Shown piece by piece: positions 224-45,979 of a stretch of DNA of 64,000 nucleotides (positions are counted from its first letter, which is position 1; every line of letters starts with the position of its first letter). Location: the NCBI GenBank assembly GCA_963843375.1, contig CAWJKT010000009.1:96001-160000 (forward strand), written 5' to 3'. The DNA comes from an uncultured Pseudomonadota bacterium. Lineage in GTDB: Bacteria; Oederibacteriota; Muellerivitia; Muellerivitales; Muellerivitaceae. A program made the translations under genes and the position numbers. The notes under the pieces were generated by a model. The model worked only from the letters and a program-made list of their open reading frames with translations. It ran no database searches and was not told the DNA's origin.

Positions 224-274
224 CAGCTTGTTAAGCTTAACCCTGGTCCGGGTACACTTTGAAGTGTTTCGGGT

Positions 275-302
275 TGTCCACGACGGGGACCCTTCGTAGC
301 AG
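275..302 (+). repeat. Palindromic putative recombination site 1
   Basis: TGTCCACGACGGG-GA-CCCTTCGTAGCAG; right arm partly degenerate. Confidence 0.85.
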
Positions 303-345
303 TTAAAGCCCCTTTTGAGTCCAGGTTTAACCAAAGTGATATCAA

Positions 346-14842: not shown

Positions 14843-14878
14843 ATCTTTCGTGGCTGGATACTTCAAGATAACCAACTG

Positions 14879-17851: not shown

Positions 17852-17874
17852 ATGGATTGAGGTTACAAAACCTT

Positions 17875-19308: not shown

Positions 19309-19309
19309 A

Positions 19310-21675: not shown

Positions 21676-21679
<4 letters not shown>
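19310..21679 (+). CDS. xfp: Phosphoketolase (Xfp)
   Basis: [38 protein letters not shown]. Confidence 0.95.
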
Positions 21680-24726
<3,047 letters not shown>

Positions 24727-24734
<8 letters not shown>

Positions 24735-26147: not shown

Positions 26148-26179
26148 AGAAAAAAACATAGTAAATAAAAGGAGGACGC

Positions 26180-26461: not shown

Positions 26462-26465
26462 ACCC

Positions 26466-27611
26466 ATGCTCATCGATTGGTTCACTGTCATCGCCCAGGC
26501 GCTCAACTTCCTCATTTTGGTGTGGCTGATGAAGCGCTTTTTATATAAGCCCATCCTCAACGCCATCAATGAGCGGGAAAAGAGGATCGCCGCCGAACTC
26601 GCGGAGGCGGACAAGAAGAAGTCCGAAGCCCAAAAGGAGGGCGACGATTTCAAGCGCAAAAATGAGGAATTTGATCGGCAACGAGCCATGCTATTGAACC
26701 AGGTAACGGTCGAGGCCCAGGCTGAACGCCAACGGCTTCTCGTGGAGGCGCGAAGGGCCGCCGAGGATTTGAGTTATAAACGGCTGGAAGCCCTGAAGGC
26801 GGAAGAACATAACCTGCACCAGGCCATCCGGCGTCGGACGGGCAAGGAAGTATTCTCCATCGCGCGAAAGACGCTATCTGATCTCGCTGGTACGGGTTTG
26901 GAGGAGCGAATGGCTGACCTGTTTATCAACCGTTTGCGGAAGATGGAAGGCCAGGCGAAAGCCGACCTTGCCGGGGCCCTTCGGACGGCTCCTGAACCCG
27001 CGCTGGTTCGAAGCGCTTTTGACTTACCCATGGAGCAGCGAGCTTCCATCCAAAAGGCGCTGAACGAGACTTTTTCATCCGAGATTCGCGTTCGTTTCGA
27101 AGCCGCCCCGGAATTGATCAACGGTATTGAACTCACTACAAATGGACAAAAGCTTGCATGGAGCATCGAGGATTACCTGGTGTCGATGGAAAAGGGTGTT
27201 GAGGAGATCCTGAAAGAGAAGGATAAAACCGCGAGCAAGGCATCGTCCGATTTGACGCCACGGATCGCCAAGCGCGCTTACGAACTGTACGAGATGCATG
27301 GTCGCAAAAACGATTCGGCGATCCAGGACTGGAGTCAGGCGGAGAGGGAGGTTCGGAAGACGGGTATCAAAGCCGAACCTAAGCCGGAAGCTAAAGTCGA
27401 ACCTAAAGTTGAGCTCAAAGCACCGCCAAAGCCCGAGGCCAAAGCCGAGATCAAACCTGAAGAAGAGGTAGCGCTTAAGCCTAAAGCCGAAGTAACCCCT
27501 AAACCTGAAATAAAAAATGGACCAAAAACAGAAGTTAAAGCCGAGCCTGGGCCGGAAGTCAAAGTGGAACCCAAGCCGGAAAAAGTCAGTCCGGGAACAA
27601 AGAGCGCATGA
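26466..27611 (+). CDS. atpF: F0 subunit b/delta fusion with DUF2934-like insert and PKE-rich tail
   Basis: [44 protein letters not shown]. Confidence 0.88.
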
Positions 27612-29302: not shown

Positions 29303-30188
29303 CACAACCGCCAGCCTTCGTCGAAAGATCGCCGGTGCCGGGGATCTTCAATCCGTCGTCCGAACAATGAAGGCCGTGGCCGCGTCCAGTATCGGGCAAT
29401 ACGAGAATTCGGTTCTAGCCCTGGCCGACTACTATCATGCCGTTGAACTGGGTTTGGGTGTTTGCTTCAGGGCAAGCGGGCCGGTTTCCGATGTCGAGGT
29501 AAGGAACGGGAAACAAAAAGTGGGAGGCATTGGGGCGGTCGTTTTCGGCTCGGACCAGGGCCTGGTGGGTCAATTTAACGAAGTGGTTGCAGATTTCGCC
29601 GTAAAAACCCTTTCGGCATTTCCATCCAAAGCCGAGGTCTGGGCTGTCGGGGAACGTGTTTACGCGCGGCTTACGGAAGCGGGCCTGCCGTTGATGGGGG
29701 TATTAACCGTGCCGAATTCCGTCAAGGCCATAACACCGCTCGTCGGGCAGATCCTCATGGAAAGCGAGGCGCGCCGGGACAAGGGTGAAATCAGCGAACT
29801 CCACCTTTTCTACAATCGCCCGACATCCGGGGCCGTTTACGCGCCCGTGACCCAGCGGCTTCTGCCACTGGACGAAAACTGGAGACGCAAGCTTGCCGGC
29901 CTCGCCTGGCCGACGGGATTCCTGCCCGAGGTCATGGGCGTGGGCGCCGAGACTTTACGGGCGTTCCTGAACGGATACCTTTTCGTTTCCCTCTTTCGGG
30001 CCTGCGCCGAATCCCTAGCCAGCGAGAACGCCAGCCGCCTGGCGGCGATGCAACGCGCGGATAAAAACATCGACGATTTGTTGGAGGAACTCAACGTTAA
30101 TTTCCATCGGTTGCGCCAAAGCGGAATAGATGAGGAACTTTTCGACGTCATCTCTGGATTCGAGGCCTTGAACGGCAAGGGGAAATGA
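29295..30188 (+). CDS. atpG: N-ATPase gamma subunit
   Basis: [38 protein letters not shown]. Confidence 0.92.
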
Positions 30189-30229
30189 TGGTTGTCGAAT
30201 AAACTTATAACCGGCCAAGTTTAGGAAGT

Positions 30230-30257
30230 TGTCCACACTGGGGACCCGCATTGGAAA
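30230..30257 (+). repeat. Palindromic putative recombination site 7 (diverged)
   Basis: TGTCCACACTGGG-GA-CCCGCATTGGAAA, between the atpG stop and the convergent transporter stop. Confidence 0.75.
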
Positions 30258-30269
30258 GGGAAGTGTTTT

Positions 30270-31028
30270 TTACTTGTCTTTCTTTTCTTCAGGCCCCCAA
30301 GTCCAATAAAGCCCCAAATAGCCGACGGTTTGGTCGTCGCCGACGATGGAATGACCGCCTGAAAAGAGCAGGCTGAAATCTTTCGAGAAGTTGAATTGAC
30401 CGCCAATGTTCACCAATAGAAAGCCCTGATCAGCAGTCGTGTCAGACCCCTGAGCGAAAAGCTCACCGCCTAACGTCAACTGATCGCTCAAATCTCTTTG
30501 TAACAACCAGCCGCCAAAGGGGTAGTTGCGCATACCAGCCGCCGCGTTTAAGGCGTAACCGCCTCCGCCATAGGTGGTCCAGGGTCCCCAGCTTTTTTGT
30601 ATCCACAGGGGTAGCTTGTACCAGGTCAGTCCATTGCCTAATCCTTGGGCAGAGTTGCCAGTTGAGACTTCTGCCAGGGGAAAGATACCCATTTGAAAAT
30701 CGTTATCGCCTTCCTTCACAAACCGAAATTTGACGCCCAACTCAGTGTCGCCCAGTCCGTAGGCGGAAGGCCCGCTGATAGGGGAAAAATAATTCAGAGA
30801 AGCGATGACGTGAAGTTGCACGTCCGGTAGGGCACCCCAGTTGAACTCAACGGCGGGGGCTTGAACCATAACGTTTCCGCTAAAACGGTCCAGGGTTTGA
30901 AACTCGTAAAATTCAAAATGGTTGAGATCGACCGGTTCCGGATCATCCGTTAAAAAGGGAGGTCCTGCCCAGGCGGGAAGCGTCGTCAACATTAGTAGAG
31001 CGGCTAAAGGCACAGGCCATTTTTTCAT
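30270..31028 (-). CDS. Putative outer-membrane beta-barrel (MetA-pathway/transporter family)
   Basis: Signal peptide, GPPFLTDDPEP, GLGDTELGVK. Confidence 0.6.
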   Translation of the reverse strand: MKKWPVPLAALLMLTTLPAWAGPPFLTDDPEPVDLNHFEFYEFQTLDRFSGNVMVQAPAVEFNWGALPDVQLHVIASLNYFSPISGPSAYGLGDTELGVKFRFVKEGDNDFQMGIFPLAEVSTGNSAQGLGNGLTWYKLPLWIQKSWGPWTTYGGGGYALNAAAGMRNYPFGGWLLQRDLSDQLTLGGELFAQGSDTTADQGFLLVNIGGQFNFSKDFSLLFSGGHSIVGDDQTVGYLGLYWTWGPEEKKDK

Positions 31029-31041
31029 TCGTTGCCCCCCT

Positions 31042-32265
31042 TTAAACTATTCCCAGGCCTGTCAAAACTCCCGCCAGAATAACAACCAGCCAGGGCGGCA
31101 CCCGCCAAAAGACCAATGAAATAAAAGCCACAGCCGCCAGACAAAAGTCGACGGCGTTCAGAATAGCACTGGTCCAAACCGGATTATAGAAGGCGGCCAG
31201 TAAAAGGCCGACGACCGCCGAGTTAATCCCCATCATGGCTTTTTGCATTCCGTTGTAATGTCTGAGACGTTCCCAAAAGGGCATGATTCCAATGACGAGA
31301 AAGAAGGACGGCAAAGATATAGCGACCAGCGCGATGACGCCGCCTACCCAGCCGGTAGGAACTTGATTAGAAACCGCGCCCAGGTAGGCGGCGAAAGTAA
31401 ATAATGGGCCGGGCAGGGCTTGGGCCGCGCCATAACCTGCCAGAAAAGTATCGTTGGAAACCCAACCCCTCGGCACAACCTGGGATTGAAGTAAGGGCAG
31501 TACCACGTGCCCGCCACCAAATACTAAAGAACCTGTCCGGTAAAAACTATCAAACAGTTGAACCGCGTAATTGCCCGAATCCAACGCGAAAACAGGAAGA
31601 AAGAAAAGCAGAATAAAGAAAAGGGAAAGCAAAATGAAACCGGTTATCCGGTTATTTTGGGTGGGAATGAAACCTTTGGTTGTGATAGGGAGTGCGGGAA
31701 GGCAGGCCCAGCCAAAACAACCGCCCGCCACAATGACGCCGATGGGAGCGAGAGGATTGGGAATAAAAGCCACTAACGCGGCGGCGCAAACCGTTAAAGT
31801 CGCGCGAAGTTTATCAGGGCTCAAATTTTTACCCATGGCCCAAAGGGCCTGGGCCAACACCGCCACGGCGACTAATTTAAGGCCGTGCAACCAGTGGTTT
31901 CCCAGTTGAGAGCCGAAGAGTGGCAGGCTATAAGCGAAGAGAATCATCGCCATGGCCGAGGGTAAGGTGAAACCCAGCCAGGCTAAAAAGGCTCCGAAAA
32001 CGCCGCCCCGCGATAGCCCGATGGCGATGCCCACTTGACTGCTGGCGGGGCCTGGGAGAAATTGGCAAAGCGCCACGATATCCACATAGGCGTGTTCGCT
32101 TAACCATTTTTTGCGCGCGACAAATTCTTGGCGAAAATATCCCAAATGTGCGATGGGACCGCCGAAAGAAGTTAATCCCAGCCGTAAGAAGGTCAGGAAG
32201 ATTTCAAATACATGGGAATGTTTTTCATCCCTCGGCGCTATCATTTTGATTTTCGTTTGGCTCAT
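31042..32265 (-). CDS. chrA: Chromate efflux transporter
   Basis: GLTSFGGP, CQFLPGPASSQ, FGGGHVVLP, AQALPGPLF. Confidence 0.92.
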   Translation of the reverse strand: MSQTKIKMIAPRDEKHSHVFEIFLTFLRLGLTSFGGPIAHLGYFRQEFVARKKWLSEHAYVDIVALCQFLPGPASSQVGIAIGLSRGGVFGAFLAWLGFTLPSAMAMILFAYSLPLFGSQLGNHWLHGLKLVAVAVLAQALWAMGKNLSPDKLRATLTVCAAALVAFIPNPLAPIGVIVAGGCFGWACLPALPITTKGFIPTQNNRITGFILLSLFFILLFFLPVFALDSGNYAVQLFDSFYRTGSLVFGGGHVVLPLLQSQVVPRGWVSNDTFLAGYGAAQALPGPLFTFAAYLGAVSNQVPTGWVGGVIALVAISLPSFFLVIGIMPFWERLRHYNGMQKAMMGINSAVVGLLLAAFYNPVWTSAILNAVDFCLAAVAFISLVFWRVPPWLVVILAGVLTGLGIV

Positions 32266-32348
32266 CGCACCTATGCCCTATCTTTTAATTCAAAACCCGT
32301 CCTAAAGTATAAGGGATTTAAGATGACCGCAACGGCAAAGGAGCGTTT

Positions 32349-32765
32349 ATGAAAATGGATAAAGCGTTGATTTTAATCCGTCTGGCTGTCGGAGCCGTTT
32401 TTCTTTCAGAGGGCATTCAAAAATTTCTGTTCTCGGAAACTTGCGGAGCGGGAAGGTTCGCCCAGATCGGCATCCCCGACCCCAATGTGATGGCGCCTTT
32501 TGTGGGTGTGGTGGAAATTGTCTTTGGAGCTTTTATTATTATCGGTTTCCTGACCCGCTTATCTGCTATACCGCTTCTCATCGACATTAGCGTGGCCATC
32601 GCGACTACCAAAATTCCTATCCTGATGGACAAGGGGTTTTGGGCCATGGCCCATGAAGCCCGGACGGATTACGCCATGTTCATGGGGCTTTTGTTTTTGT
32701 TGATAGCGGGCGGCGGTGACTTTTCGGTTGGTTCTGTTTTGAAGTCAGGGAAAAAGAAGCGGTAA
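32349..32765 (+). CDS. DoxX-family membrane protein
   Basis: RLAVGAVFLSEGIQKF..GVVE..GFLTR. Confidence 0.85.
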   Translation: MKMDKALILIRLAVGAVFLSEGIQKFLFSETCGAGRFAQIGIPDPNVMAPFVGVVEIVFGAFIIIGFLTRLSAIPLLIDISVAIATTKIPILMDKGFWAMAHEARTDYAMFMGLLFLLIAGGGDFSVGSVLKSGKKKR

Positions 32766-32807
32766 AGCTGAAGGGTTTAATCGTTAACTATCCATCAGGG
32801 AGAGCGT

Positions 32808-33356
32808 ATGTCAACTTTTGAGAATATCGACGTTTCTATTTTTCGATGGATCAATTCAGATTGGTCAAATCCTGTTTTTGATAAAGTTTTCAGCTTATTT
32901 AGCGATCTTCCGGTTCTCCTGGTTCCCGTTGTCATTTTAATCCTGTGGCTTTTAGTGAAAGGGGGAAAAGCAGGCTGGCTTTTTGTGTTGAAACTGATAT
33001 TGGCAGTGGCAGCTGCCAACGAAATCACGGAGCTTATTTTCAGACCCTGGATCGCCAGGGTGAGGCCCTGCGTCGCTTTGCAGGGGGTGAACACCCCCGA
33101 TGGGATATTGACGTCCTATTCTTTTCCCGCCGGTGCGGCGGCGCTAGTGGCGGCGGGCATGTTGGTTTTGACTTTTCGCTATCCCAAGTACAAATGGCTT
33201 TTTCTTTTTCTGGCGATAATGGTAGGCCTTTCTCGAATTTATTTGGGTGTTCATTATCCAACGGATGTTTTAGGCGGGTTTGCGGTGGGGATTCTGGCAG
33301 GGGGGATGGTAGAGTGGGTTTTTAAGATTGTGAAAAAGTTAATCAAGCGCGCATAG
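32808..33356 (+). CDS. PAP2-family phosphatase
   Basis: R.RP, SFPAG (canonical PSGH altered), SRIYLGVHYPTDV. Confidence 0.8.
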   Translation: MSTFENIDVSIFRWINSDWSNPVFDKVFSLFSDLPVLLVPVVILILWLLVKGGKAGWLFVLKLILAVAAANEITELIFRPWIARVRPCVALQGVNTPDGILTSYSFPAGAAALVAAGMLVLTFRYPKYKWLFLFLAIMVGLSRIYLGVHYPTDVLGGFAVGILAGGMVEWVFKIVKKLIKRA

Positions 33357-33407
33357 TTCAGGTTTTACCGGTCGTTCGCGAAAACGAATCCTTGAAAGGA
33401 AAATAAA

Positions 33408-33782
33408 ATGCAAGATTTGCTTTTGTACCTCGGGGCTTATCTGATCGGTTCTATCCCAGTGGGTTTTTTGATATTAAAAACGTTTAGGAATATCGACATG
33501 AGAAAAGTGTTCGATCGTCCTCTGACCCTATCGCAGAAACTGAAAATAACAGGCATTCCCCTGGGTCTGTTGGTCTTAGCGCTTAATGTGTTGAAGGGCG
33601 TCGCGGCCATTCTTTTAGCCCGCACTCTTTCCCCGACCGATCAACCGGATTGGATATTGGCGGGATTTCTTACCCTCTTAGGCGATGAGTTTCCGGTATT
33701 TCTAAAATTCAAAGGCTATCGGGATATCGGCGTCAGTGTGGGGGTTTTCGCTTCGCTTTTGTTTTGGATGATGACAAAATAA
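33408..33782 (+). CDS. Short PlsY-like (glycerol-3-phosphate acyltransferase-like) membrane protein
   Basis: YLIGSIP, LKG, FPVFLKFKG; shorter than PlsY and motifs degenerate. Confidence 0.55.
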   Translation: MQDLLLYLGAYLIGSIPVGFLILKTFRNIDMRKVFDRPLTLSQKLKITGIPLGLLVLALNVLKGVAAILLARTLSPTDQPDWILAGFLTLLGDEFPVFLKFKGYRDIGVSVGVFASLLFWMMTK

Positions 33783-33796
33783 ACGGGCGAGGATAC

Positions 33797-35026
33797 ATGA
33801 ATAAAATTTTTTTGAACTACGCTGCCGGGATGGTCTTGGCCCTGTCTTCCATACCCGCTTTCGCGGATATGCCGACAATCTCCCCGACTCCGACCAACAC
33901 ACAACCGACATTTGCATTTGGCGGCATGGTGGACGCTTACTATTCCTATAACTTCCCTAACGCTTCGGATAACACGGTGGGTCAAGGCAACAACTCCAGC
34001 GTTTATTTTTATAACGGTAAAGACGACAGCCTGGCTTTGGGGCTGGCAGAATTAACCGCCAACGCGACCCAAGGTCAAGGAAGTATTCATTTAGTCTTGG
34101 CGGACGGTATCAGTGCCTCCCCCAGCGCGGGCGGGGCGGGACTCAATCCATCCAACCCCCAGGGCATCGATGTGCTTCAAGCTTATTTTTCTTATAAACC
34201 CTCGGACTGGATCCTCAGCGCGGGAAGGTTTGTGGGCTGGACGGGAGCGGAAGTCATCGAAAGCCAGTACAACTGGAACTATACCCACTCGCTTCTTTTT
34301 CAATACACCCGTCCCTATTGGACCACCGGCCTTAGCGCGGCCTATCAACCGGACTCTGTTTTTAAAATCACGGGTTACGCGGTGGATGGTTGGAACAACG
34401 CCTCGGGGGCGGGCATCGGCAAGACTTACGGTTTTCAAATGGGCTTGACGCCTGACTCGGTTTGGAAATTCACGTTGAATGGCCTCATTGGTCCGGGTTC
34501 GGGCACTTCCTACGTCAATTTCGCCGGAACGAACGCCGCCAATTTTGTGGGGGAGGCCATTGTCATGTTCAAGGCCACGGACAAGCTTTCCTTCGCCCTA
34601 CAGGCGGACTATGTCGGCCAGGACGTGACCGGCGCTTCGACTCGAGATGTTTGGGGTTCGGGCGTGGATGCATGGGGTATGGCCCTTTATGGCCGTTATC
34701 AGTTTGAAAAAGATTGGGCCTTGGCTTTGAGAATTGAAAATTTGGAAGACAGCGAAAACATGTTCGGCCTCTTCGGAAACAATTTTATGCTTCCCGGCAA
34801 CTCGCTGGCGGTGGCCCCTGCTAAGGATGTGGAAGCCCAAGAATTGACCGTGACTATCGAACACAACTTGATGCCGAATTTAGTATTTAAAGTGGAAGGC
34901 CGAGCGGACGAGGCTTTGTCCGGCAACCAGGAAGTTCCCCTCACCAAAGGACCCTTTATCCCCGGCAGTGTGAACGATCAGGGCGACGAATTTACCTGTA
35001 CAGCTAGCGCGGTCTATAGCCTCTAA
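33797..35026 (+). CDS. Outer-membrane beta-barrel/porin
   Basis: Signal peptide; G.VDAYYSYNF, QAY..Y, G.EVIES..NWNYT.S.LF. Confidence 0.7.
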   Translation: MNKIFLNYAAGMVLALSSIPAFADMPTISPTPTNTQPTFAFGGMVDAYYSYNFPNASDNTVGQGNNSSVYFYNGKDDSLALGLAELTANATQGQGSIHLVLADGISASPSAGGAGLNPSNPQGIDVLQAYFSYKPSDWILSAGRFVGWTGAEVIESQYNWNYTHSLLFQYTRPYWTTGLSAAYQPDSVFKITGYAVDGWNNASGAGIGKTYGFQMGLTPDSVWKFTLNGLIGPGSGTSYVNFAGTNAANFVGEAIVMFKATDKLSFALQADYVGQDVTGASTRDVWGSGVDAWGMALYGRYQFEKDWALALRIENLEDSENMFGLFGNNFMLPGNSLAVAPAKDVEAQELTVTIEHNLMPNLVFKVEGRADEALSGNQEVPLTKGPFIPGSVNDQGDEFTCTASAVYSL

Positions 35027-35108
35027 TTTCGTTTGAGAATTCTTTTCTAGCGTTGCCTTCCACTTATTTGGTTTAGAAACGCCATTAAAATCATCAAAAA
35101 ACTTACCC

Positions 35109-35140
35109 TTGACTCTGGAGTATACTCCAGCACCTATACT
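35109..35140 (+). promoter_or_regulatory. MerR-type promoter/operator
   Basis: TTGACT-20 bp-TATACT with the perfect palindrome CTGGAGTATACTCCAG in the spacer. Confidence 0.85.
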
Positions 35141-35156
35141 CGCGATTGGAGCGGAT

Positions 35157-35537
35157 ATGAAAACTAATGAAACTGTTTTGCAAATTGGACAAGTTTCCAA
35201 AAAAAGTGGAATGTCCATCGACACCATTCGTTATTACGAAAAGGAAGGTTTACTGAAAAAGCCGTCCCGGAGCGAAGGCGGTTTCAGGGTCTATTCCCAG
35301 GAAGCGGTAGACCAATTGGTTTTTATTCGAAAAGCCCAAGCTATGGGACTGACGCTTAAAGAAATTAAAAAAATTATGTGTTGCGGAGATAAAGGGCTTG
35401 AACCTTGCTGTGACCTGACGGTTGATTTGTTCGCGGCAAAAATCAACGAATTTGAAACCAAAATCTCGGAACTCGAAGAGATGAAGAAAAAGTTAAAGAC
35501 CGTATTGGGTGGTTGGGTAACAAAAAAGAGGAAATAA
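35157..35537 (+). CDS. MerR-family heavy-metal-responsive regulator
   Basis: IGQVSK..TIRYYEKEGLL..R.EGGFR.Y; Cys pairs CC...CC. Confidence 0.9.
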   Translation: MKTNETVLQIGQVSKKSGMSIDTIRYYEKEGLLKKPSRSEGGFRVYSQEAVDQLVFIRKAQAMGLTLKEIKKIMCCGDKGLEPCCDLTVDLFAAKINEFETKISELEEMKKKLKTVLGGWVTKKRK

Positions 35538-35547
35538 GGGGGCTGTT

Positions 35548-35985
35548 ATGGCGCTAAAGGTTTTGATTTTATGCACAAAGAATTCCTGTCGCTCACAAAT
35601 GGCGGAAGGTGTATTGAAACATTACGGTGGCGACAAGTTCATTGTAGAAAGCGCGGGTTTAGAACCTACACACGTTAATAAGAACGCCATCAAAGTCATG
35701 AAAGAAATCGGTATTGATATTTCCAATCAAAGTTCAAAGAACGTTGTAAGTTTCTTGGGGCAGTATTTTGGATTCATTATCACGGTTTGTTCTGATGCGG
35801 ATATGAGATGCCCAATTTTCCCAGGCGTGGCACAGCGGCTTTATTGGCCGTTCAATGACCCGCCCCAAACGGAAGAAGAGTCGGCTGAAATACTGGATGA
35901 ATTTCGTAAAGTTCGTGATGAAATTCATGTGAGATTCAAAGAAGTGGCTGAGAAGGGGTTTGGCGCTTTCACGGCTAAGAAGTAA
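35548..35985 (+). CDS. arsC: Arsenate reductase (LMW-PTP type)
   Basis: CTKNSCRSQMAEG, ITVC..CP, W.F.DP. Confidence 0.9.
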   Translation: MALKVLILCTKNSCRSQMAEGVLKHYGGDKFIVESAGLEPTHVNKNAIKVMKEIGIDISNQSSKNVVSFLGQYFGFIITVCSDADMRCPIFPGVAQRLYWPFNDPPQTEEESAEILDEFRKVRDEIHVRFKEVAEKGFGAFTAKK

Positions 35986-35986
35986 C

Positions 35987-36187
35987 ATGACCGGCGAGAT
36001 GGCGTTGTTTCGATGGTTTTTGGGAATGGCACAAATAACAGGCTCGACTATGGCGTTGGTGTTTTTGTTTAGAACTGGTTTGAGTCCGTTGTTCTGGGTG
36101 ACTTTTGCGGTCACAACTATTTTTACCATCACCAGCCGAATCCTATTTTGGCGGGGAAAGCATTGGAAGTCGTTCTTTACGGAATGA
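35987..36187 (+). CDS. Small membrane protein
   Basis: Two hydrophobic segments within the ars operon. Confidence 0.45.
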   Translation: MTGEMALFRWFLGMAQITGSTMALVFLFRTGLSPLFWVTFAVTTIFTITSRILFWRGKHWKSFFTE

Positions 36188-36209
36188 TTCAAATTGAGGG
36201 GACATAACG

Positions 36210-36614
36210 ATGAGAGTTCATGTATCGATTAACGTCAAAAACGTCAGTGAATCGGTTGAGTTCTATGAAAAGGTATTCGGCGTCAAGCCACAAAAGCAGA
36301 CAGCCGATTACGCTAAATTTGATCTGAAAAAACCCGCTCTCAATTTTTCAATGCAGTCTCATTCAGACAGACCCATTAGTCGGGTTACCCATTTCGGGGT
36401 TGAAGTTGATTCGCCTATGGAACTTCAGGATTTTCAAAATAGGCTTAACGCAAGTGGTATTGCCGTAGAGGAAGAAAAACAGACTGCTTGTTGCTTTGCC
36501 CGTCAGGATAAAGCTTGGTTCAAAGACCCAGACGGCAATTCCTGGGAAATATTTCACGTGTATGAGCAGTTGCCAATTCATCCTTCTTCCAATTCCAGTC
36601 AGTGTTGTGCCTAA
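36210..36614 (+). CDS. ArsI/CadI-family VOC metalloenzyme
   Basis: RVHVSINV, HFGVEV, CCFARQDK.W..DPDGN.WE. Confidence 0.88.
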   Translation: MRVHVSINVKNVSESVEFYEKVFGVKPQKQTADYAKFDLKKPALNFSMQSHSDRPISRVTHFGVEVDSPMELQDFQNRLNASGIAVEEEKQTACCFARQDKAWFKDPDGNSWEIFHVYEQLPIHPSSNSSQCCA

Positions 36615-36641
36615 TTAATCCATCAGATAAAGGAAATGTAA

Positions 36642-37703
36642 ATGAGTGATCTTTCTAAAAAGATGAATGTCTTTGAACGTTACCTCACCCTTTGGGTTGT
36701 GCTTTGTATGGTGTTGGGTGTTTTGATTGGCAAAGTTTTACCCCAGGTTGTTACGGCGTTACAGCAAATGGAATTTGGCACAGGTAGCCATATCAACATT
36801 CCTATAGCTATTCTGATTTGGTTGATGATCTACCCGATGATGTTGAAGATAGACTTTGCCTCAATTAAGAACGTCGGCAAGCGTCCCAAAGGACTCTTGG
36901 TAACCTTGTTTGTTAACTGGCTCGTGAAGCCTTTCTCAATGGCTTTTTTGGGATGGTTTTTCTTTAAGGTGCTTTTTGTGCCCTTCTTGGGAGCGGAAGT
37001 GGCTAACCAGTATTTGGCAGGTGTCATCATCTTAGCCGCCGCACCTTGCACCGCTATGGTATTTGTCTGGTCTTATTTAGCGGGCGGGGATGCCGCTTAC
37101 ACGTTAGTTCAAGTATCGGTTAATGACCTGATTATGCTGGTCGCTTTTGCTCCCATTGTTCGGTTCTTGGTATCGGGCGCGTCGGGGTTGGAAGTTCCTT
37201 TCCAAGTTCTTTTATATTCAGTCCTTATTTTTGTAGTTATTCCACTCTTACTAGGCGCTGTCAGTCGTTGGCTCCTCATCCAAAAGAGTGGAGCCAAATG
37301 GTTCAATGAAAAGTTTTTGCCCGTATTCCAACCCATCACCATATTGGCTTTGCTGGCTACTCTGGTTTTGATCTTTGCCTTTCAGGCTCAAAACATTACG
37401 GGTAGGTGGTTGGATGTATTTTTAATCGCGATTCCCATTCTTATCCAGGTTTACTTTAACGCGGGGCTTGCCTATGGTTTGATGAAGCTTTTGAAAGTGC
37501 CTTATTCAGTGGCCGCGCCTGGCGCGTTGATTGGTGCCTCGAATTTCTTTGAATTGGCGGTCGCTACTGCGATCGCTTTGTATGGCCCGGGCAGTGGAGC
37601 GGCTTTAGCAACGGTAGTGGGGGTATTGGTCGAAGTGCCTGTCATGTTGTCGGTTTGTTCCATTTGTACTAATACAAAGGGTTGGTTTGGAAAGGAAAAA
37701 TAA
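36642..37703 (+). CDS. acr3: ACR3 arsenite efflux transporter
   Basis: FERYLTLWV, NWLVKPF, APCTAMVFVW, GASNFFELAVA, LVEVPVML. Confidence 0.95.
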   Translation: MSDLSKKMNVFERYLTLWVVLCMVLGVLIGKVLPQVVTALQQMEFGTGSHINIPIAILIWLMIYPMMLKIDFASIKNVGKRPKGLLVTLFVNWLVKPFSMAFLGWFFFKVLFVPFLGAEVANQYLAGVIILAAAPCTAMVFVWSYLAGGDAAYTLVQVSVNDLIMLVAFAPIVRFLVSGASGLEVPFQVLLYSVLIFVVIPLLLGAVSRWLLIQKSGAKWFNEKFLPVFQPITILALLATLVLIFAFQAQNITGRWLDVFLIAIPILIQVYFNAGLAYGLMKLLKVPYSVAAPGALIGASNFFELAVATAIALYGPGSGAALATVVGVLVEVPVMLSVCSICTNTKGWFGKEK

Positions 37704-37706
37704 ACC

Positions 37707-38126
37707 ATGAAAAAGATTCTTTTTCTTTGCGTCGCGAATTCTGGCAGAAGTCAAATGGCCGAAGGAATCGCAAAAGAACTTTGGGGCGATAGCGCCCTTA
37801 TTCAAAGCGCCGGGTCAAAGCCATCATTGGTGAATCCCTATTCCATCAAGGTTCTGGCAGAGATTGGGATTAATGCTTCAGGCCAATATTCCAAGTCGGT
37901 GGCGGATATCGACCCTTCAACAGTGGATACGGTTATTACTCTTTGCGCCGAAGAAGAGTGTCCTGTTTTCTTGGGTAAGGCAGAGAGGATTCATTGGCCC
38001 TTGCCCGACCCTGGTGTTGGGGCCAATAGCGAAGAAGAAAAGCTTCAAAGTTTTCGTAAAGTTCGCGATGAAATAAAAAGCCGATTGAATAAGTTTAAAA
38101 ACGAAATGGGCGTTAAGGCAATTTAA
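37707..38126 (+). CDS. arsC: Arsenate reductase (second copy)
   Basis: CVANSGRSQMAEG, ITLC..CP, HWPLPDP. Confidence 0.88.
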   Translation: MKKILFLCVANSGRSQMAEGIAKELWGDSALIQSAGSKPSLVNPYSIKVLAEIGINASGQYSKSVADIDPSTVDTVITLCAEEECPVFLGKAERIHWPLPDPGVGANSEEEKLQSFRKVRDEIKSRLNKFKNEMGVKAI

Positions 38127-38161
38127 TAAAATTTAGTTCAAAAATACCAAAGAACTAACCT

Positions 38162-38189
38162 TGTCCACGGCGGGGACCTGTAGTAAACA
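38162..38189 (+). repeat. Palindromic putative recombination site 8 (diverged right arm)
   Basis: TGTCCACGGCGGG-GA-CCTGTAGTAAACA, 35 bp after the arsC stop. Confidence 0.78.
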
Positions 38190-38537
38190 ATAATTTTTTC
38201 ACCATTTTGACCGTTTCCTCATTTTTCCCTGAACCTTTTCCCATAGTTTCCCGTAACACTTCGCTCCATGTGTAACATATTAGGAATTTTATTCCCCCCA
38301 GCTTCAACCACAATGGTGAAACTATGCAACGAGACTATCGAAGTGATAGCGACGACACCTGAAAATTTGTCCAAGGAAATGGGATTGAAATAATCAGTGT
38401 TTGTGACTCGGATCATAATGTGAGCCCCCAAAAATCATTTAAAATAATTTTCAGAATAATTTATTTCGCTGTGATCGGGGTCATATTCCCCTGTTACATT
38501 TCGAAGTGAATTCACTAAACCCAAAAAGGAGGAATTT

Positions 38538-38708: not shown

Positions 38709-39110
38709 ATCTTAATAAATAAATTGCTTTATACGACGCCGCTTGAATCAACCGTGTCCCAAACCCTTGTGGACACGGTTTCGAGCTTAAAGAGCAAACC
38801 GATACAAACGGGAGGCGGAACATGGTTGACGCCGTTATAAAGAAATACGGGCCTTTTTTTGAAAAATTGATACTGTGGGTAATAGAAGGTAAAAAATCCC
38901 CTTTTTGTCGGGACTATCCCCCAAGGTTGAAAACAACTCAAAAATCTTTTCGGAAAATGCGCAATAAAAACAAAGCCTTGGCTGTTCTGGCTCACGCTCC
39001 AATCCACCAAAAAGCTTAAAATGATTACTGGAAGAGGTTCTTGATAGGATACCGAGAAGGTGCCAGCGGAGTTATTCTGACGTGGTAAGAAAAAGAATCC
39101 TCCTCTAGAG

Positions 39111-39149
39111 GAACCCCGGATGGTTGTTAATCCCGGGGTTTTTTATTTT
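39111..39149 (+). terminator. Intrinsic terminator just upstream of site 9
   Basis: AACCCCGG...CCGGGGTT followed by TTTTATTTT. Confidence 0.65.
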
Positions 39150-39165
39150 AGGGTTGTCCACGACG

Positions 39166-41106
39166 GTGCGTCCAGAAAAGGCAGGTGTGTTCAGCAAGAG
39201 ATAGTCTTGCATGGGTAATAGCCAAAGCCCATTAGCTAGGATGGCAGGCAAGCGGGAAACCTAATGTCTGAAGCCCATCAACAAAGCCATCGAAAGGATG
39301 GTGAGCGAGTCGTCGGGCCGTAACGAAAGTAAATGCACAGGTGGCCCCGAAAACAATTGCCTCGAAGGCCGAGTCCGCCGTCGTGGGACGAAGGCATCAT
39401 GGGCCAGCGCAGAGATATGGCTGAAGCGCTGGAACACTTCGGCGGGGTGATAGCAACGGCACGATGACAAGGACACGCCAAGCAACTGGAGAAACCCTCC
39501 TTGCCCCAAGCAGAAATGCTTGGAGAAGGGTAAGCCGTATAACCGTGACGCGGGAAAACGGCTGAAGGCGAGAGGGTTTAGGATGGGTTCATGGTAGCGA
39601 CGAAGCGTGGTAATGCCCGTGGAGCGAAGGAACCCTGCTGCTGTTAAGTCTCTCGACAAAACGGAAGGCAGTGACGGTATGAAAAAAACGTCTATCAACC
39701 TGCAAGACCTGAGACGAGAGATATACGTCAAAGCGAAGGCTGAAAAGAACTGGAGTTTCTGGGGACTGTACACTCATGTTTGCAAGATGAAAACGCTTCA
39801 ACAGGCATACCGGATGGCTAAGGTAAATAACGGAGCCCCAGGAATAGATGGGGTAACGTTTGATGCCATTGAGGGAGCTGGAGTGGAGCCATTTCTGGAA
39901 AGCATCCGGGGTGAATTAGTTCAAGGCACGTATAAGCCCGCTCGAAATCGGAAGAAGGAAATACCCAAGGGAAATGGGAAGGTAAGAGTCCTTGGGATAC
40001 CGAACATTCGGGATAGAGTAGTCCAGGGAGCGATGAAGCTCATTCTGGAGCCGATTTTTGAGGCCGATTTTCAAGAAGGGTCCTATGGGTATCGACCCAA
40101 GCGGACCGCTCATGCGGCTGTGAACAGGGTAGCATCAGCAATCGTTTGTAGAAAAACCCGAGTCATCGATGTAGACCTCAAGGCATATTTCGACACGGTA
40201 AGGCATGACCTGCTGATGAAGAAAGTTGCCCGAAGGGTTGAGGATGAAACGGTGTTGGGATTGTTGAAGATGATCCTGAAAGCCAGCGGCAAAAGAGGAG
40301 TCCCGCAGGGAGGGGTTATTTCTCCGCTTCTGGCAAATCTCTACCTCAACGAGGTGGATAAGATGCTGGAAAAGGCAAAAGAAGTGACCCGGCAAGGGAA
40401 GAACGACTATATCGAATATGCGAGGTTTGCTGACGATATGGTGATCCTTGTTAATGGATATCCGCAATGGGAATGGTTGGCAAAGGCTGCCTACCGAAGG
40501 TTACTTGAAGAGTTGACCAAGCTCGACTTACAAATCAACACGGACAAGACACGGATAGCAGACCTAACGAAAGGAGAAAGTTTCGGATTTCTGGGGTTTG
40601 ACTTTCGACAGGTGAAAACCCGTCGAGGGAAATGGGGAGTGAAGTTCACGCCGAAAATGAAGGCTCGGACAACACTTTTAGGCAAGCTCAAGGAAACATT
40701 TCGAAGCTTTCAATCCCAGCCGGTGCAGAGGGTGATTGAGCTGATCAATCCCAAACTGCGTGGATGGGTCAATTACTTTCGGATAGGAAATTCTAGTCGT
40801 TGTTTTAATTACGTGGAAAGATGGGTCGAGAATAAAATCAGAAGGCACATGATGCGTGCGAAGAAGCTTGATGGTTTTGGGCGGAATAGGTGGAGTAGGG
40901 AATGGATAAATAAGTATCTGGGGTTGTACAGAAGTTACCAAATACGTTATTACCAAGAACCGAAAGCACTACCAGTCCAATAAGTCACATAAACTTTGAC
41001 ATGAAGACAACAGGTGAGCGTAGTGCGGGAAATCCGCACGCTACGTTCGAGGAGGCGGGGACTGGAAACGGAGCCAGAAGGCCACCGCACCAGCCCTCGA
41101 CCCTAC
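39166..41106 (+). mobile_element. Group II intron (AGC catalytic triad, IIB-like)
   Basis: 5' GTGCG; domain V GAGCGTAGTGCGGGAAATCCGCACGCTACGTTC at 41016-41048; 3' end CCCTAC; internal RT ORF. Confidence 0.92.
39679..40983 (+). CDS. ltrA: Group II intron reverse transcriptase/maturase without endonuclease domain
   Basis: GAPGIDG, RVLGIP.IRDRVVQ, SYGYRP, PQGGVISPLLAN, RFADD, FLGF, LRGWVNYF. Confidence 0.93.
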   Translation: MKKTSINLQDLRREIYVKAKAEKNWSFWGLYTHVCKMKTLQQAYRMAKVNNGAPGIDGVTFDAIEGAGVEPFLESIRGELVQGTYKPARNRKKEIPKGNGKVRVLGIPNIRDRVVQGAMKLILEPIFEADFQEGSYGYRPKRTAHAAVNRVASAIVCRKTRVIDVDLKAYFDTVRHDLLMKKVARRVEDETVLGLLKMILKASGKRGVPQGGVISPLLANLYLNEVDKMLEKAKEVTRQGKNDYIEYARFADDMVILVNGYPQWEWLAKAAYRRLLEELTKLDLQINTDKTRIADLTKGESFGFLGFDFRQVKTRRGKWGVKFTPKMKARTTLLGKLKETFRSFQSQPVQRVIELINPKLRGWVNYFRIGNSSRCFNYVERWVENKIRRHMMRAKKLDGFGRNRWSREWINKYLGLYRSYQIRYYQEPKALPVQ

Positions 41107-41159
41107 AGGAGCCATCGTGGACACCTAATTTCCTTGCTTGAGAATAACCCCAAGTGATT

Positions 41160-42005
41160 TTAGGATTTACGGCCCTTGACCGCCGAGTTCCTTTTTAAAA
41201 CCCTCTGAACCTTATCCCAAAGCTTCTTCGATATGAGGGGTTGGTATTTGCCCTCGTAATGTTGTCCCTTCCATTGGAATGTTCCCGAATACATCTTGTT
41301 GGTGAGGATTTTGTGAACCGTACTCCGGGGAAGTGGCTTATTGCTTTTGCGAAAGACTAATCCCTTGGCTTTGAATTTCTCCGTTATCTCGTTGAGGGAA
41401 TAATCCCCTGAAGAATAGGTTTTGAATAGACGGATTACAAAAGGAGCCAAACGGCGATCCGGTTTGATGGTTCTTTTTCCCGCCTTTCCCAAAATGTTCT
41501 TATAACCCATGGGAGCCACCGAAGGCCAAATCCCCTGTTCCGCTTTTTCCGTCATGCCTTTACGAGTCTCTTCCGAAAGGTTATCCACGTAGTTCTTGGC
41601 CATCAAGACCTTAATCCCGTGGATGAACTTGTCGGCGGATTTGGAGTGGCTTGAAACGACGGCCCCTTCCTTGACCAAATGGATCTCAATGTCGATATCC
41701 TCCAAACAGACGTAATCTTTGAAATTGCGGTATAGGCGGTCGGTCTTCTCGACCAGCAGGTACTTGCAGTTGGAGTTGTTGATTAGGAAATCCACCATCT
41801 TCGCGAAGCCTACCCGACCCGATTGTTTGGCGGTTTCCACGTCGCGGAATTCCTTCACAATCTCGAAACCCTGGGTTTGACCATATTGACGAAGAAGCCT
41901 CAACTGGGCGGGGATTGAGAAGCCCTGCTTTTCTTGTCCCTTCGAGGACACCCGGACATAGAGGACGGCCTGGATGGCTCGACTGACCTTGCGATTTGAT
42001 TTCAT
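41160..42005 (-). CDS. Serine recombinase (catalytic plus recombinase domain; no zinc-ribbon/coiled-coil)
   Basis: YVRVSS catalytic Ser, DRLYR, APMGY, ILTN.MY.G, PLISKKLWDKVQ, then stop after 281 aa. Confidence 0.9.
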   Translation of the reverse strand: MKSNRKVSRAIQAVLYVRVSSKGQEKQGFSIPAQLRLLRQYGQTQGFEIVKEFRDVETAKQSGRVGFAKMVDFLINNSNCKYLLVEKTDRLYRNFKDYVCLEDIDIEIHLVKEGAVVSSHSKSADKFIHGIKVLMAKNYVDNLSEETRKGMTEKAEQGIWPSVAPMGYKNILGKAGKRTIKPDRRLAPFVIRLFKTYSSGDYSLNEITEKFKAKGLVFRKSNKPLPRSTVHKILTNKMYSGTFQWKGQHYEGKYQPLISKKLWDKVQRVLKRNSAVKGRKS

Positions 42006-42815: not shown

Positions 42816-43415
42816 TTAGTTTTGGATTTTCCGGGACCAGGCTTTTTCAGGATCTTCCAGGTCGCGGTTGACGAGGGACAGGTCGAATTCCTCGGGGTCA
42901 TAGGGTCTCCCGAACCACTCTATTAAATCCTCTCGATCCGGGTGGTTGGGATTCTTCATGGCTTCCACCAGGTTCTCGTATCCGGTGGTGCTTCCACAAT
43001 CCTCAGGGGGACAGGCGCGGGCCCCGGAGAGGCAGAGGGGGTATGGGCGGAGGGGATCAGAGGCTAGAACATCCTCTAAGACGATGTCATGTTCCCAGGC
43101 GTCCCCAAAGTCATAGAGGTATTCCAGGCGGTCGCCGGGTTTAAAAAGGACCCTTGAAAGGGGCACCTCACGGGAGTCGGTGTACTCTTTATCGTCGTAG
43201 CGGTCGTTTTCCGGGTCGGGTAGCTGAAAATGGGTTTCGTCCTTGATGAATTCGTGCAGGTGGCTGTCCGACCAGCCCATAGCCAGTTGAAGGACCTCAT
43301 GGAGTTCGTGAAGGGTAGTGGTGGGGGAAACCAGCAGTTGTCTCCAGATGGGCGGGTGAATGTCCTTGAGGGTGACTTTGAGCCGGTAGAGGCGTTGGGT
43401 TTTGGAGGGTGTCAT
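42816..43415 (-). CDS. Plasmid pRiA4b ORF-3 family protein
   Basis: PPIWR.LLV..TL.ELH..LQ.AMGW.DSHLHEF, YLYDFGD.WEH, G.RACPPEDCG. Confidence 0.88.
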   Translation of the reverse strand: MTPSKTQRLYRLKVTLKDIHPPIWRQLLVSPTTTLHELHEVLQLAMGWSDSHLHEFIKDETHFQLPDPENDRYDDKEYTDSREVPLSRVLFKPGDRLEYLYDFGDAWEHDIVLEDVLASDPLRPYPLCLSGARACPPEDCGSTTGYENLVEAMKNPNHPDREDLIEWFGRPYDPEEFDLSLVNRDLEDPEKAWSRKIQN

Positions 43416-44323
43416 GAAATTTCCGTCCTTTATGAAAGGGTTTTGGTTTTTTTGGTGGCCGTTTAAGGCCGGGTGCAACGGAATCGAAATATAACATCAC
43501 AAGGCACGAAAGAAAATAACCTTGGGGATGATTCATTAAGGGGGCTTCCAGGAAAACCACCAGGAAGCCCCCTTTTTTTTGAGTGGATGGAAGGGGATGG
43601 GGTAGTTAAGGGAAAACGGACTTATTCCAAGATAAAAAAAGGTATGTAATAAAAAACAGACTTGAAGACAACACTCAGAATCAAGAAGGCCATTTAAGGG
43701 GGAACGAAAAAGGGAAAGCACCTTTTTCGTGGGCCTTCCCCCTGGGTCAAGCTACCCGCTCTGCCAATCGCAAATGGCGATTGGCACAACCAAGGCTCTG
43801 GTGCCGTCTTGTGGACGGCACCAAGGTGAAAACCGCGGGCATCTTGACCCACCCCTATCCTCAGGGGCTTTGCCCCCGAACCCCTTACCAAAATGGAATT
43901 GCCCCTTTTGGAATTCCCGGAACCGTTGGTGGGGATTGAGTGGGAGCGTTGAAGATCCCTTTCCTTTTCCAGCGGGGACCCCACCAAGCCGTAAGCCCCC
44001 TCACCGTCTTGCAATCCTTCCCAATTATTTTAGCTCTTCTTGGAATAACGTTTTGGGGGCTACACAGCCGTTCGGCTGCAAGCCGGCGTGGGGGCTTACG
44101 GATTGGTACACCCCCGCTGGCACAGTCCCGTCTGGGCGACGAACAAATGCCGCCCTGACAGGACTGCGATAAAGGAAAGGGGCGTTTGAGTCCTCAGGGC
44201 CGTTTCCAGAAAGCCAAAGTTCGGCGTAGGCCAAAAAGATACCGCCTCGGTTTGTCTTTCTGGAAAGGGTCCCCCTTCCCCTGACGGGGAAGCGGCGCTT
44301 CGGGTGGAGAGGATTCAAAATCT

Positions 44324-44994: not shown

Positions 44995-45100
44995 ATGCCC
45001 GGCATGACATGCCCCGTATGACATGCTTCGCATGAAACCCATTCAACCTTTTGACTTTAAGGAACTCATTCACTCACTAACCAACACAGGAGGAAAAACC

Positions 45101-45979
45101 ATGAAGAGGAATATAGCGGAAGAAATTACGGGCAGGATTTTAGAGGACTTGGAAAAGGGAGTTTTGCCTTGGGAAAAACCCTGGAAAGCGGGACGGGGTT
45201 TGCCCCTGCCGATGAACGCCAGCACCCAGAAGCACTACCGAGGAATTAACGTCTTTGTCCTTTGGGACGAACAGGCGAGGCGGGGATTTTCTTCCCCGGC
45301 TTGGGTGACCTTTAACCAAGCCAAGGCTTTGGGAGGAACCGTCAAAAGGAGCGAAAAGGGAACGGGGGTTGTTTTCTACAAGCGACTCGCCAAGACCAAT
45401 TCTTTGAACCTCGACGATGAAGTCATGCTGGAAGAACAGACATTTTGGGTCTTGAGGACTTATACGGTCTTTAACCTCGACCAAGTGGAGGGGCTTGACC
45501 ACCTGAAACCCAAAGTTGAAACGGTGAAGCCTTTTGCCGCCATCGAGAGAGCCGAACGGCTCTTGAAGGATTCGGGAGCGAAGATCATTCACGCCGCCAT
45601 TGACCGGGCTTTTTATGAACCCAAGGGGGACTTGATTACCCTTCCCTTGAAAGGGAGCTTCAAAAATCCGGAAACCTATTACTCCACGGCCCTGCATGAA
45701 TTGACCCACTGGACCGGAAACGAGGCCCGATTGAATCGGCAATTCGGGAAGCGGTTTGGGGACCAAGCCTACGCTTTCGAGGAATTGGTGGCCGAAATGG
45801 GAGCGGCATTTCTTTGCGTCTCTTGCGGCATTCCTTATGACACCCAGCACGCCCGCTATATCGGTGACTGGATGAAAATTTTGAAGGACCACAAGCGGGC
45901 CATCTTCACGGCGGCGGCAAAAGCCCAGGCCGCTATGGACTTTGTGTTGAAAACCCAATTTGAGGAAGCGGTAGCCTGA
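45101..45979 (+). CDS. ardC: ArdC anti-restriction ssDNA-binding/zincin protein
   Basis: PW.KPW, YRGIN, W.TFNQA, VFN.DQ, LHELTHWT, YAFEELVAE. Confidence 0.9.
   Translation: MKRNIAEEITGRILEDLEKGVLPWEKPWKAGRGLPLPMNASTQKHYRGINVFVLWDEQARRGFSSPAWVTFNQAKALGGTVKRSEKGTGVVFYKRLAKTNSLNLDDEVMLEEQTFWVLRTYTVFNLDQVEGLDHLKPKVETVKPFAAIERAERLLKDSGAKIIHAAIDRAFYEPKGDLITLPLKGSFKNPETYYSTALHELTHWTGNEARLNRQFGKRFGDQAYAFEELVAEMGAAFLCVSCGIPYDTQHARYIGDWMKILKDHKRAIFTAAAKAQAAMDFVLKTQFEEAVA

Follow-up and report, generated by a model that had tools for sequence, protein, structure and literature searches.

The stretch of DNA analysed here (the window) comprises 64,000 nucleotides, positions 96,001 to 160,000 of contig CAWJKT010000009.1 in assembly GCA_963843375.1, from an uncultured soil bacterium whose genome is called G000 below. 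It carries nine copies of a 30-bp palindrome, and the ninth is split by a group II intron, the subject of this report. The intron begins with GTGCG at 39166 and ends with GACCCTAC (CCTAC), closing at 41106; joining its exons as TTGTCCACGACG/AGGAGCCATCGTGGACAC (the slash marks the insertion point, here and below) restores the ninth palindrome, and the palindrome has the sequence TTGTCCACGAyGGG-GA-CCCnTCGTGGACAA. The intron, its exon-binding sites (EBS) and the intron-binding sites (IBS) that they face in the 5′ exon are arranged as follows.

39152..39165, plus strand: 5′ exon end, the left arm of palindrome copy 9 (from the letters, and from covariation with EBS2 and EBS1)
39152-39157, plus strand: IBS2, GGTTGT, followed by a spacer C at 39158
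39159-39165, plus strand: IBS1, CACGACG, the 7-nt complement of EBS1
39166..41106, plus strand: group II intron, GUGCG...CCUAC, 1,941 nt (boundary letters, Rfam, Pfam, fold of domains V and VI)
39192..39328, plus strand: part of domain I (Rfam group-II-D1D4-4, RF02003)
39353..39358, plus strand: EBS2, ACAAUU, whose core ACAA pairs with TTGT (covariation)
39373..39389, plus strand: EBS1 stem-loop with stem GUCC/GGAC (covariation; RNAalifold hairpin loop)
39379-39385, plus strand: EBS1, CGUCGUG, the loop of the GUCC/GGAC stem
39679..40983, plus strand: intron-encoded protein, 434 aa, reverse transcriptase (RT; RVT_1) and maturase X (GIIM) (Pfam)
41015..41049, plus strand: domain V (D5) with AGC triad and 5-nt loop GAAAU (fold of the intron's last 99 nt)
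41051..41106, plus strand: domain VI (D6), a long stem with a predicted bulged A at 41100 (same fold)
41107..41124, plus strand: 3′ exon start, the remainder of palindrome copy 9, AGGAGCC ATCGTGGACAC (letters, junctions of homologues)

Window positions 39166-41106 hold a complete, apparently intact retromobile group II intron. Its ends agree with the 5′ GUGYG and 3′ AY boundaries of mobile group II introns and align with those of 78 homologous loci, and the RF02003 match, with 119.3 bits (gathering score 49; E=4e-26), covers the full model (1-138). Without its open reading frame (ORF) the ribozyme measures about 636 nt. The ORF is intact: Pfam recognised RVT_1 (E=1.8e-33) and GIIM (E=4.2e-16) in the 434-aa protein and no DNA-endonuclease (D/En) domain, and the motif YARFADD recurs in 108 of the 135 stored proteins, which with few exceptions are RT homologues. 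The fold of D5 and D6 in the last 99 nt has an energy z-score of -3.93, with the predicted bulged A lying at -7 from the 3′ splice site. A first-pass annotation, made from the letters of the stretch, had placed the intron at 39166-41106, 2 nt before the central GA of the ninth site, and all of these coordinates hold. The intron is present as a single copy in G000.

Two segments of the intron are complementary to the 5′ exon. CGTCGTG (EBS1) is the only complement of CACGACG within the intron, where by our own arithmetic about 0.1 chance match is expected per 1.9 kb, and it spans exon positions -1 to -7. EBS2 (ACAA[UU]) spans [GG]TTGT at -9 to -14. The first-pass annotation had proposed both elements, the first as a GTCC-GC-CGTCGTG-GGAC stem-loop at 39373-39389 complementary to CACGACG and the second as ACAATT at 39353-39358 pairing with GGTTGT (39152-39157) through two G-U pairs, and both sets of coordinates are exact. 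Covariation was then scored for the three proposed helices in an alignment of 30 relatives, each contributing 20 nt of exon and 240 nt of intron.

IBS1-EBS1 helix: 7 of 7 pairs change on both sides; 84.3% of cells paired
IBS2-EBS2 helix: 5 of 5 pairs change on both sides; 76.8% of cells paired
Stem closing the EBS1 loop: 3 of 4 pairs change on both sides; 99.2% of cells paired

Taken together, the helices are paired in 85.8% of cells, against 31-43% when the partners are slid by 1-3 columns, and in 500 column shuffles the observed value was reached by none on four of five measures and by one on the fifth; kinship among the aligned sequences, and the fact that the structure came from the same set, make these slide and shuffle controls overstate the case somewhat. 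The proposed EBS elements stand at the expected positions: both covary with the 5′ exon, and EBS1 lies in a covarying hairpin, where RNAalifold of the aligned region also puts it in the loop. EBS1 is 6-7 nt long across these relatives. Several have other targets with matching EBS1 (GGGTCT with AGACCC, TGTCTC with GAGACA and ACTTTT with AAAAGT; further EBS1-exon pairs are AACCGT with ACGGTT and CTTAAT with ATTAGG), and such individual examples are hard to account for other than by base pairing.

The target is a near-perfect palindrome (by eye) with 14-2-14 symmetry, a GA centre and a conserved GGGGACCC core. Repeat search located its unoccupied copies in the window at the following positions.

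274..303, plus strand: copy 1
893-922, 3966-3995 and 4296-4325, plus strand: copies 2-4
17362-17391 and 17874-17903, plus strand: copies 5-6
~30229-30258 and 38161-38190, plus strand: copies 7-8

All eight are on the plus strand and seven of them lie within about 150 nt downstream of a listed plus-strand ORF; as a control for chance, GTCCACN8-20GTGGAC was seen four times against 0.02 expected. CACGACG recurs in unoccupied sites 1, 2 and 5 (at 279, 898 and 17367), and site 1 also has GGGTTGT, exactly as the first reading had it. A fuzzy search found 67 copies in the 4.05-Mb, 80%-complete genome G000, clustered in a few stretches of contigs C6, C9, C10 and C18, nearly all of them co-oriented within a stretch and often spaced 300-1,500 bp apart. 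Of 30 other family genomes, 26 contain the core motif, against only 2 of 68 genomes in the remaining phylum. The earlier suggestion that the sites are an abundant conserved target is borne out by these counts. As for pairing, 53 of the 67 sites in G000 match EBS1 over 7 of 7 positions (29 perfectly, 24 with one wobble).

The palindromes also delimit units that are shared between genomes. Window positions 1-4400 were searched against the family, with these matches.

892-3993, site 2 to site 3: genome G044, 96% identity
304-908, end of site 1 to site 2: genome G049, 92% identity
4001-4324, end of site 3 to site 4: genome G067, 86% identity

Each block ends at palindromes and the neighbours of each differ; thus these comparisons show the palindromes to be cassette junctions, that is, junctions of units that move separately between genera. 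Between genomes, the bounding sites vary in their inner 4-nt linkers, even beside a 96%-identical cassette, and sometimes in their core (window 274-4325 compared with loci L139, L141 and L143), which implies that the inner part of the site is inherited with neither neighbouring cassette. Across the G000 sites, that at window ~30229-30258 included, the right arm takes two recurrent forms, a palindromic ...CCCGTCGTGGACAA and a non-palindromic ...CCCGGATTGGACAA or GCATTGGACAA, and these suggest two half-site classes.

Homologous copies of the intron were collected in two ways: an RT protein scan over one genome per species gave 78 loci, whose intron ends were placed by BLAST with the termini of the window intron, and further copies came from a family-wide DNA search with inspection of the flanks. 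Twenty copies, from 8 genomes of the family, have the CGTCGTG loop and a readable 5′ junction, and 15 of them are inserted at the same position, CACGAyG/G of a palindrome; the flanks of close homologues, which the first-pass annotation had singled out for examination, are in keeping with its proposal. The richest source is the metagenome-assembled genome CAVYRH01 (G067; same family, other genus), with 12 loci at about 95% nucleotide identity to the window intron and an intron-encoded protein, in this multi-copy form, 97% identical to that of the window. Ten of the 12 lie at TTGTCCACGACG/GGGAnCC (three of the ten are cut short on one side by the end of their contig), and the outer flanks differ in at least 8 palindrome copies. 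The other two, off the palindrome at GGTGTCGTCGACG/TGG, fit their own EBS2 (ACAC) and 5 nt of EBS1.

Elsewhere in the family, a 94-95% copy in another genus (G070, L013/L081) lies at CACGATG/GGGACCCATCGTGGACAA (GGGACCC), ORF-less derivatives sit inside palindromes at the same site in G066 and G049, and in G051 a tandem ORF-less pair has the 5′ junction of its first copy at a palindrome left arm. In that pair (L085/L091, G051:C7:117202-118492) the second copy follows the terminal CCCTAC of the first without a gap, and each opens with GCGCG, not GUGCG. Occupied palindromes are thus found in 6 genomes (G000, G067, G070, G066, G049 and G051) from 5 genera of the family. The occupied sites have GACG or GATG in the left arm and GTCG, ATCG, CTAT, GTGA or TGAT in the right; all palindrome insertions seen are in sense orientation, matching that of the site core, and each of the 9 other loci checked has an ORF of 70 aa or more on the same strand that ends upstream. 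Intron DNA occurs in 9 of 30 other family genomes, against 26 of 30 for the uninterrupted palindrome motif. Three further genomes hold deviating or incomplete copies: G048 a truncated copy whose junction with a palindrome is aberrant; G052 an 83% copy (L016/L082) after a terminator stem and before its T-run (GGTGGCGGCGC/GGGTTTTTT); and G049 an 81% nucleotide copy (L083) with another loop, GAAGGG, placed after CCCTTC, and a second copy (L090) that runs off its contig.

More distant relatives (L017-L079, 63-75% RT identity) belong to Desulfobacterota, Nitrospirota, Rhodothermales, Acidobacteriota and others and lie mostly at the D5/D6 junction of other group II introns, as twintrons. A crude motif test found D5-like 5′ flanks at 37 of 52 readable loci, with about 3 more by eye; many are intragenomic copies, and a single Rhodothermales chromosome holds 17 of the 78 RT loci. 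Since these relatives occupy other targets with matching changes of EBS1, they support the base-pairing programme and do not refute it. The FCPU426 clade itself has exchanged this kind of target, at the D5/D6 of other introns, for the cassette palindrome.

On this evidence it is very probable that the window holds a IIB-like intron without endonuclease (En-minus) whose EBS were retargeted to the left arm of a 30-bp cassette-junction palindrome within one FCPU426 family. The anatomy, the complementarity, the covariation, the repeated insertion at the same base and the target at a cassette junction are direct observations. As for mechanism, the excised intron RNA, bound by the RT/maturase, would pair its EBS1 and EBS2 with the left arm of the palindrome and reverse-splice after ...CACGAyG, two bases before the asymmetric GA centre. 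A G and a U of EBS1 would face the variable arm positions (-2 C/T, -3 A/G), and through wobble at -2 and -3 one EBS1 could cover most site variants. Because the protein lacks an endonuclease, cDNA synthesis is most likely primed from nascent strands at the replication fork, a route established for RmInt1 (PMC8914252). An intron lying in sense orientation after stop codons would be removable from read-through transcripts at low cost to the host, and the palindromes would offer a harmless, abundant and horizontally travelling landing pad. At an occupied site, the half-sites are 1.9 kb apart, which as a logical consequence should disable a recombinase that needs both; the first-pass annotation had likewise suggested that the intron may block the recombinase-proximal site at the DNA level. 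Splicing and retrohoming are presumably still going on.

A number of observations weigh against this reading. First, the intron is single-copy in G000 although 53 pairing-competent sites are free (the assembly is 80% complete). Second, a hairpin and T-run just upstream (~39105-39148, plus strand) could limit read-through; a promoter and terminator scan did not call this plus-strand hairpin and T-run (its loop is too long) and called a terminator-like site on the minus strand at 39112-39098. Third, the exon base at +1 is A here and G in the other palindrome insertions. Fourth, the EBS2-IBS2 pairing is weak here (four Watson-Crick and two G-U pairs), and for IIE/IIF introns this pairing is described as dispensable for splicing in vitro (PMC3753933). 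Fifth, public contigs from soil and peat DNA and from two metatranscriptome runs contain the exact intron sequence, but they leave the window flanks uncovered, show neither a spliced junction nor an empty site and have no bearing either way on splicing. Last, 30 of the 67 sites in G000 offer a full IBS1 on the bottom strand as well, and among the palindrome insertions examined there was none on the bottom strand. With all insertions in sense, a determinant beyond EBS1 and EBS2 must set the orientation; candidates are the exon from +3 onward, replication polarity and a need for transcription.

The first three of these points also favour the rival that survives best, namely that in G000 the intron is a recent arrival or an already immobile passenger, with a targeting programme that is real and not operating there. 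So does the state of a second intron lineage at the palindrome (described below), which G000 retains only as fragments (C9:252564-253211 and C6:12680-12831). Against it, the 434-aa ORF (with the family-typical YARFADD), D5 and D6 are all intact, a form that shares 95% identity with the intron has at least 10 copies in G067, and repeats assemble poorly in a genome that is 80% complete. We hold this possible, if on the whole unlikely.

It is far less probable that a DNA hairpin formed by the palindrome is what the intron recognises, in the fashion of IIC and IIC-attC introns, with the EBS complementarity being secondary. The target is indeed a perfect hairpin-former, the 83% copy in G052 directly follows a terminator stem and precedes its T-run, distant relatives lie directly after D5 hairpins, and the nearest solved RT is that of GsI-IIC (188 bits). 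The insertion, however, is within the 5′ arm of the stem and not past it, a 7-nt EBS1 and an EBS2 are present and both covary, and IIC introns are described as having no EBS2 (PMC3753933). The two non-palindromic targets in G067 retain IBS1- and IBS2-like sequence and no palindrome, and the terminator copy in G052 retains GGCGGCG/C, pairable with EBS1 partly via G-U. Equally remote is the idea that the copies spread as hitch-hikers, by duplication or horizontal movement of intron-carrying cassettes rather than by repeated homing: cassettes do travel between genera at 86-96% identity and some G067 loci share flanks (L010/L014, L002/L008, L004/L011), but at least 8 G067 loci differ on both sides past the 30-bp site, the occupied sites differ in arm variants, and they occur in 6 genomes and 5 genera of the family. 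A transposon carrying the intron between terminal inverted repeats formed by the palindrome halves was rejected, since uninterrupted copies are far commoner (26 of 30 genomes against 9 of 30) and EBS pairing explains the junction of palindrome half and intron.

By its sequence features the ribozyme is IIB-like and not IIC, given that EBS1 and EBS2 are both in use, and it is probably of the class F-related 'g2' variety. The first-pass call of an AGC-triad, IIB-like and non-IIC intron has stood up, with AGC in D5 and covariation throughout the EBS2-IBS2 helix. Among the handful of solved RTs the GsI-IIC RT ranks above T.el4h RT (128 bits) and LtrA (122); an assignment to class C from this ranking was rejected, solved RTs being few and the RNA features contradicting IIC. 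A 434-aa protein of Desulfofarcimen (Desulfotomaculum) acetoxidans DSM 771 shares 73% identity with the RT, and Table S2 of Toro and Martinez-Abarca (2013; PMC3552965) places in g2 a 434-aa RT-X intron-encoded protein of that strain, from a 2,006-nt intron; the class rests on this one link, which holds if the 73% homologue is g2 entry YP_003191293. A relative at 74% (L017) is 2,006 nt long. According to the same table, g2 includes Mx.xa.I1, which is class F in the Zimmerly database (PMC3552965). IIE and IIF introns are described as IIB-like, 450-700 nt without the ORF, with a 5-nt D5 loop, EBS1 and EBS2 and, in IIF, long D6 stems (Nagy et al., 2013; PMC3753933), and the window intron fits all of these descriptors (RT-X without D/En, a ribozyme of ~636 nt, a GAAAU D5 loop and a long D6).

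The intron can be compared with several known systems. It resembles the IIF/g2 introns (Pe.th.I2, Ge.ur.I1, Mx.xa.I1 and the D. acetoxidans intron) in its ~430-aa RT-X protein without En, small ribozyme, 5-nt D5 loop, long D6 and use of EBS1 and EBS2 in domain I. The targets given for those introns in Table S2, in contrast, are non-coding sequence, transposase or insertion sequence (IS) genes and a few other genes, with no palindromic cassette site among them (PMC3552965). Like the IIC-attC introns (S.ma.I2 and others), it belongs to a lineage specialised on a cassette-separating site, with many copies at a fixed position (PMC4424553, PMC3001079). Those are class C, described as having no EBS2, a short EBS1 and recognition of a stem-loop, and they insert in the bottom strand of attC, antisense to the cassettes, in an IntI integron (PMC4424553, PMC3001079). 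The window intron, unlike them, is IIB-like with a 7-nt EBS1 and an EBS2; it lies inside the 5′ arm, 2 nt before the centre, and not just downstream of a stem-loop; it is on the strand of the window's site-associated ORFs, in sense; and its target, a perfect 30-bp palindrome, belongs to a cassette system other than an integron.

RmInt1 of Sinorhizobium meliloti (class D, En-minus) is similar in its base-pairing retrohoming into a repeated element, ISRm2011-2 (PMC1802570, PMC8914252), and its reverse splicing into single-stranded DNA at the replication fork is a likely mechanistic model for the window intron; it differs in having an intron-encoded protein of another class and a target inside an insertion sequence, not at a palindromic cassette junction. 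UHB.I2 (IIB1/CL1; Sonbol and Siam, 2021, PMC7923331) is similarly a non-IIC intron in a cassette array, in cassette orientation, but it is described as one copy after attC with no conserved flanking exons among its homologues, whereas 15 of 20 copies here share the insertion point and the EBS elements covary. The twintrons of Methanosarcina acetivorans (PMC4424553) recall the distant relatives, which use the D5/D6 of introns as an abundant, conserved and harmless hairpin. Overall, the closest parallels are IIC-attC introns for behaviour, RmInt1 and other base-pairing En-minus introns for mechanism and class F/g2 for kinship.

A 2015 review gives the kinds of targets of bacterial group II introns as homing sites, sites after terminators and attC, the last two being used by class C only (PMC4424553). 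Literature searches returned no intron lineage homing into such a palindrome and no description of serine-recombinase cassette arrays; for cassette arrays, the one published non-IIC intron among the results was UHB.I2 (plus fragments; PMC7923331), and the nearest repeat-linked item was a table row giving 2 of 9 Pseudomonas putida intron copies near repetitive extragenic palindromic sequences (REPs; PMC1525189). Here, many independent insertions, covariation and wobble tolerance show that a base-pairing intron lineage outside class C has become a specialist of the junction site in a cassette system. This would parallel the integron-invading IIC-attC introns, with a different intron class, mechanism and target, as the first-pass annotation had proposed. 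The clade also gives a natural example of EBS retargeting, with three targets at 81-95% nucleotide identity. The intron independently supports the FCPU426 arrays as a real mobile-cassette system, with a palindrome that is conserved, abundant and horizontally travelling, and the effect of intron occupancy on cassette exchange becomes testable.

A candidate for the enzyme that moves the cassettes lies directly beyond the occupied site.

41160..42005, minus strand: short serine recombinase, 281 aa, with Resolvase and Recombinase domains (Pfam)

Its stop codon is about 35 nt from palindrome copy 9. Short homologues (~285 aa) are full-length in G054, G052, G048 and G067, with fragments in G048 and G070, and at 6 of 6 further short-form loci a site lies at most ~60 nt past the 3′ end of the gene, in the opposite orientation to it. 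The recombinase-proximal arm of that site is divergent in short-form loci (for example CCCAAAAGGAACAC), whereas none of 4 full-length homologues (512-570 aa) has a site nearby. The order that recurs (window 41126-42005; L110-L113, L116, L124) is a short recombinase gene of 281-329 aa, 15-60 nt, a divergent-arm site and then cassettes, which are on the opposite strand and point towards the recombinase gene. The arrangement supports a link between the short recombinase and the palindrome, and the site has the layout of a serine-recombinase crossover site (dyad symmetry, an asymmetric central GA and an adjoining recombinase gene); the short serine recombinase may act on the palindromes. Against this, an 11-8-11 tyrosine-recombinase layout is equally possible. 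No short recombinase match was found in the site-rich genomes G044, G047, G050 and G066 (29 motif matches in G044, 27 in G047). No IntI-type recombinase adjoins the window's array; the genome has 14 Phage_integrase matches, none beside arrays, with one weak match 2.5 kb from the C18 array. Comparison with the same-genus genome G054 gave only two matches to the window, the recombinase gene (75% nucleotide identity) and one 245-nt stretch, so that G054 offered no orthologous counterpart of the array.

A wider proposal, which we offer tentatively and think rather unlikely as a whole, is that the palindromes belong, together with the ~285-aa serine recombinase, to an integron-like cassette system not described before, with two dedicated intron lineages as parasites, one inside the left arm and one at the right edge, an inserted intron locking the junction against recombination by parting its half-sites while transcripts stay splice-repairable. 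If so, the intron would be a lock on cassette shuffling, reversible at the level of RNA and irreversible in DNA, and homologous recombination between intron copies could make new junctions.

The second group II intron lineage is 1,972 nt long, encodes an RT with YADD and lies directly after the right arm of the palindrome (...GTGGACAT/CGTGCCAG). It stands at the right arm in 5 of 5 G048 copies examined (L103, L105, L108, L099 and L094; 10 matches in G048) and, in G067, at several sites (L143 and the flanking sequence 3′ of L002, L008, L010 and L014), and some G067 palindromes hold both introns. A plain complement search for its EBS1 found nothing. Alignment to domain I of the window intron gives a candidate EBS1 loop, GUGUCU, that could pair with GGACAU through two wobbles, on a provisional 5′ boundary for this second intron.

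Some of the units between sites are large: the one at 17904-30223 (12 kb) ends with an ATP synthase gamma-subunit gene and has two similar ATPase-subunit-like stretches (repeat D13), and the one at 30259-38160 (8 kb) ends with genes for an SBF-family transporter and a low-molecular-weight phosphatase (ArsC-like). Past the recombinase lie a PRiA4_ORF3-like gene (42816-43478) and an ArdC-N and zincin metallopeptidase gene (45023-45979). Genes of both these kinds are typical of plasmids and conjugative elements, and the recombinase end of the array may border a mobile element. Two plus-strand ORFs are each preceded by a copy of an imperfect, ~100-nt repeat (4785-4888 and 14792-14897; 78-92% identity), of which a third, partial copy at 38137-38172 overlaps site 8; the repeat might serve as a common regulatory region.

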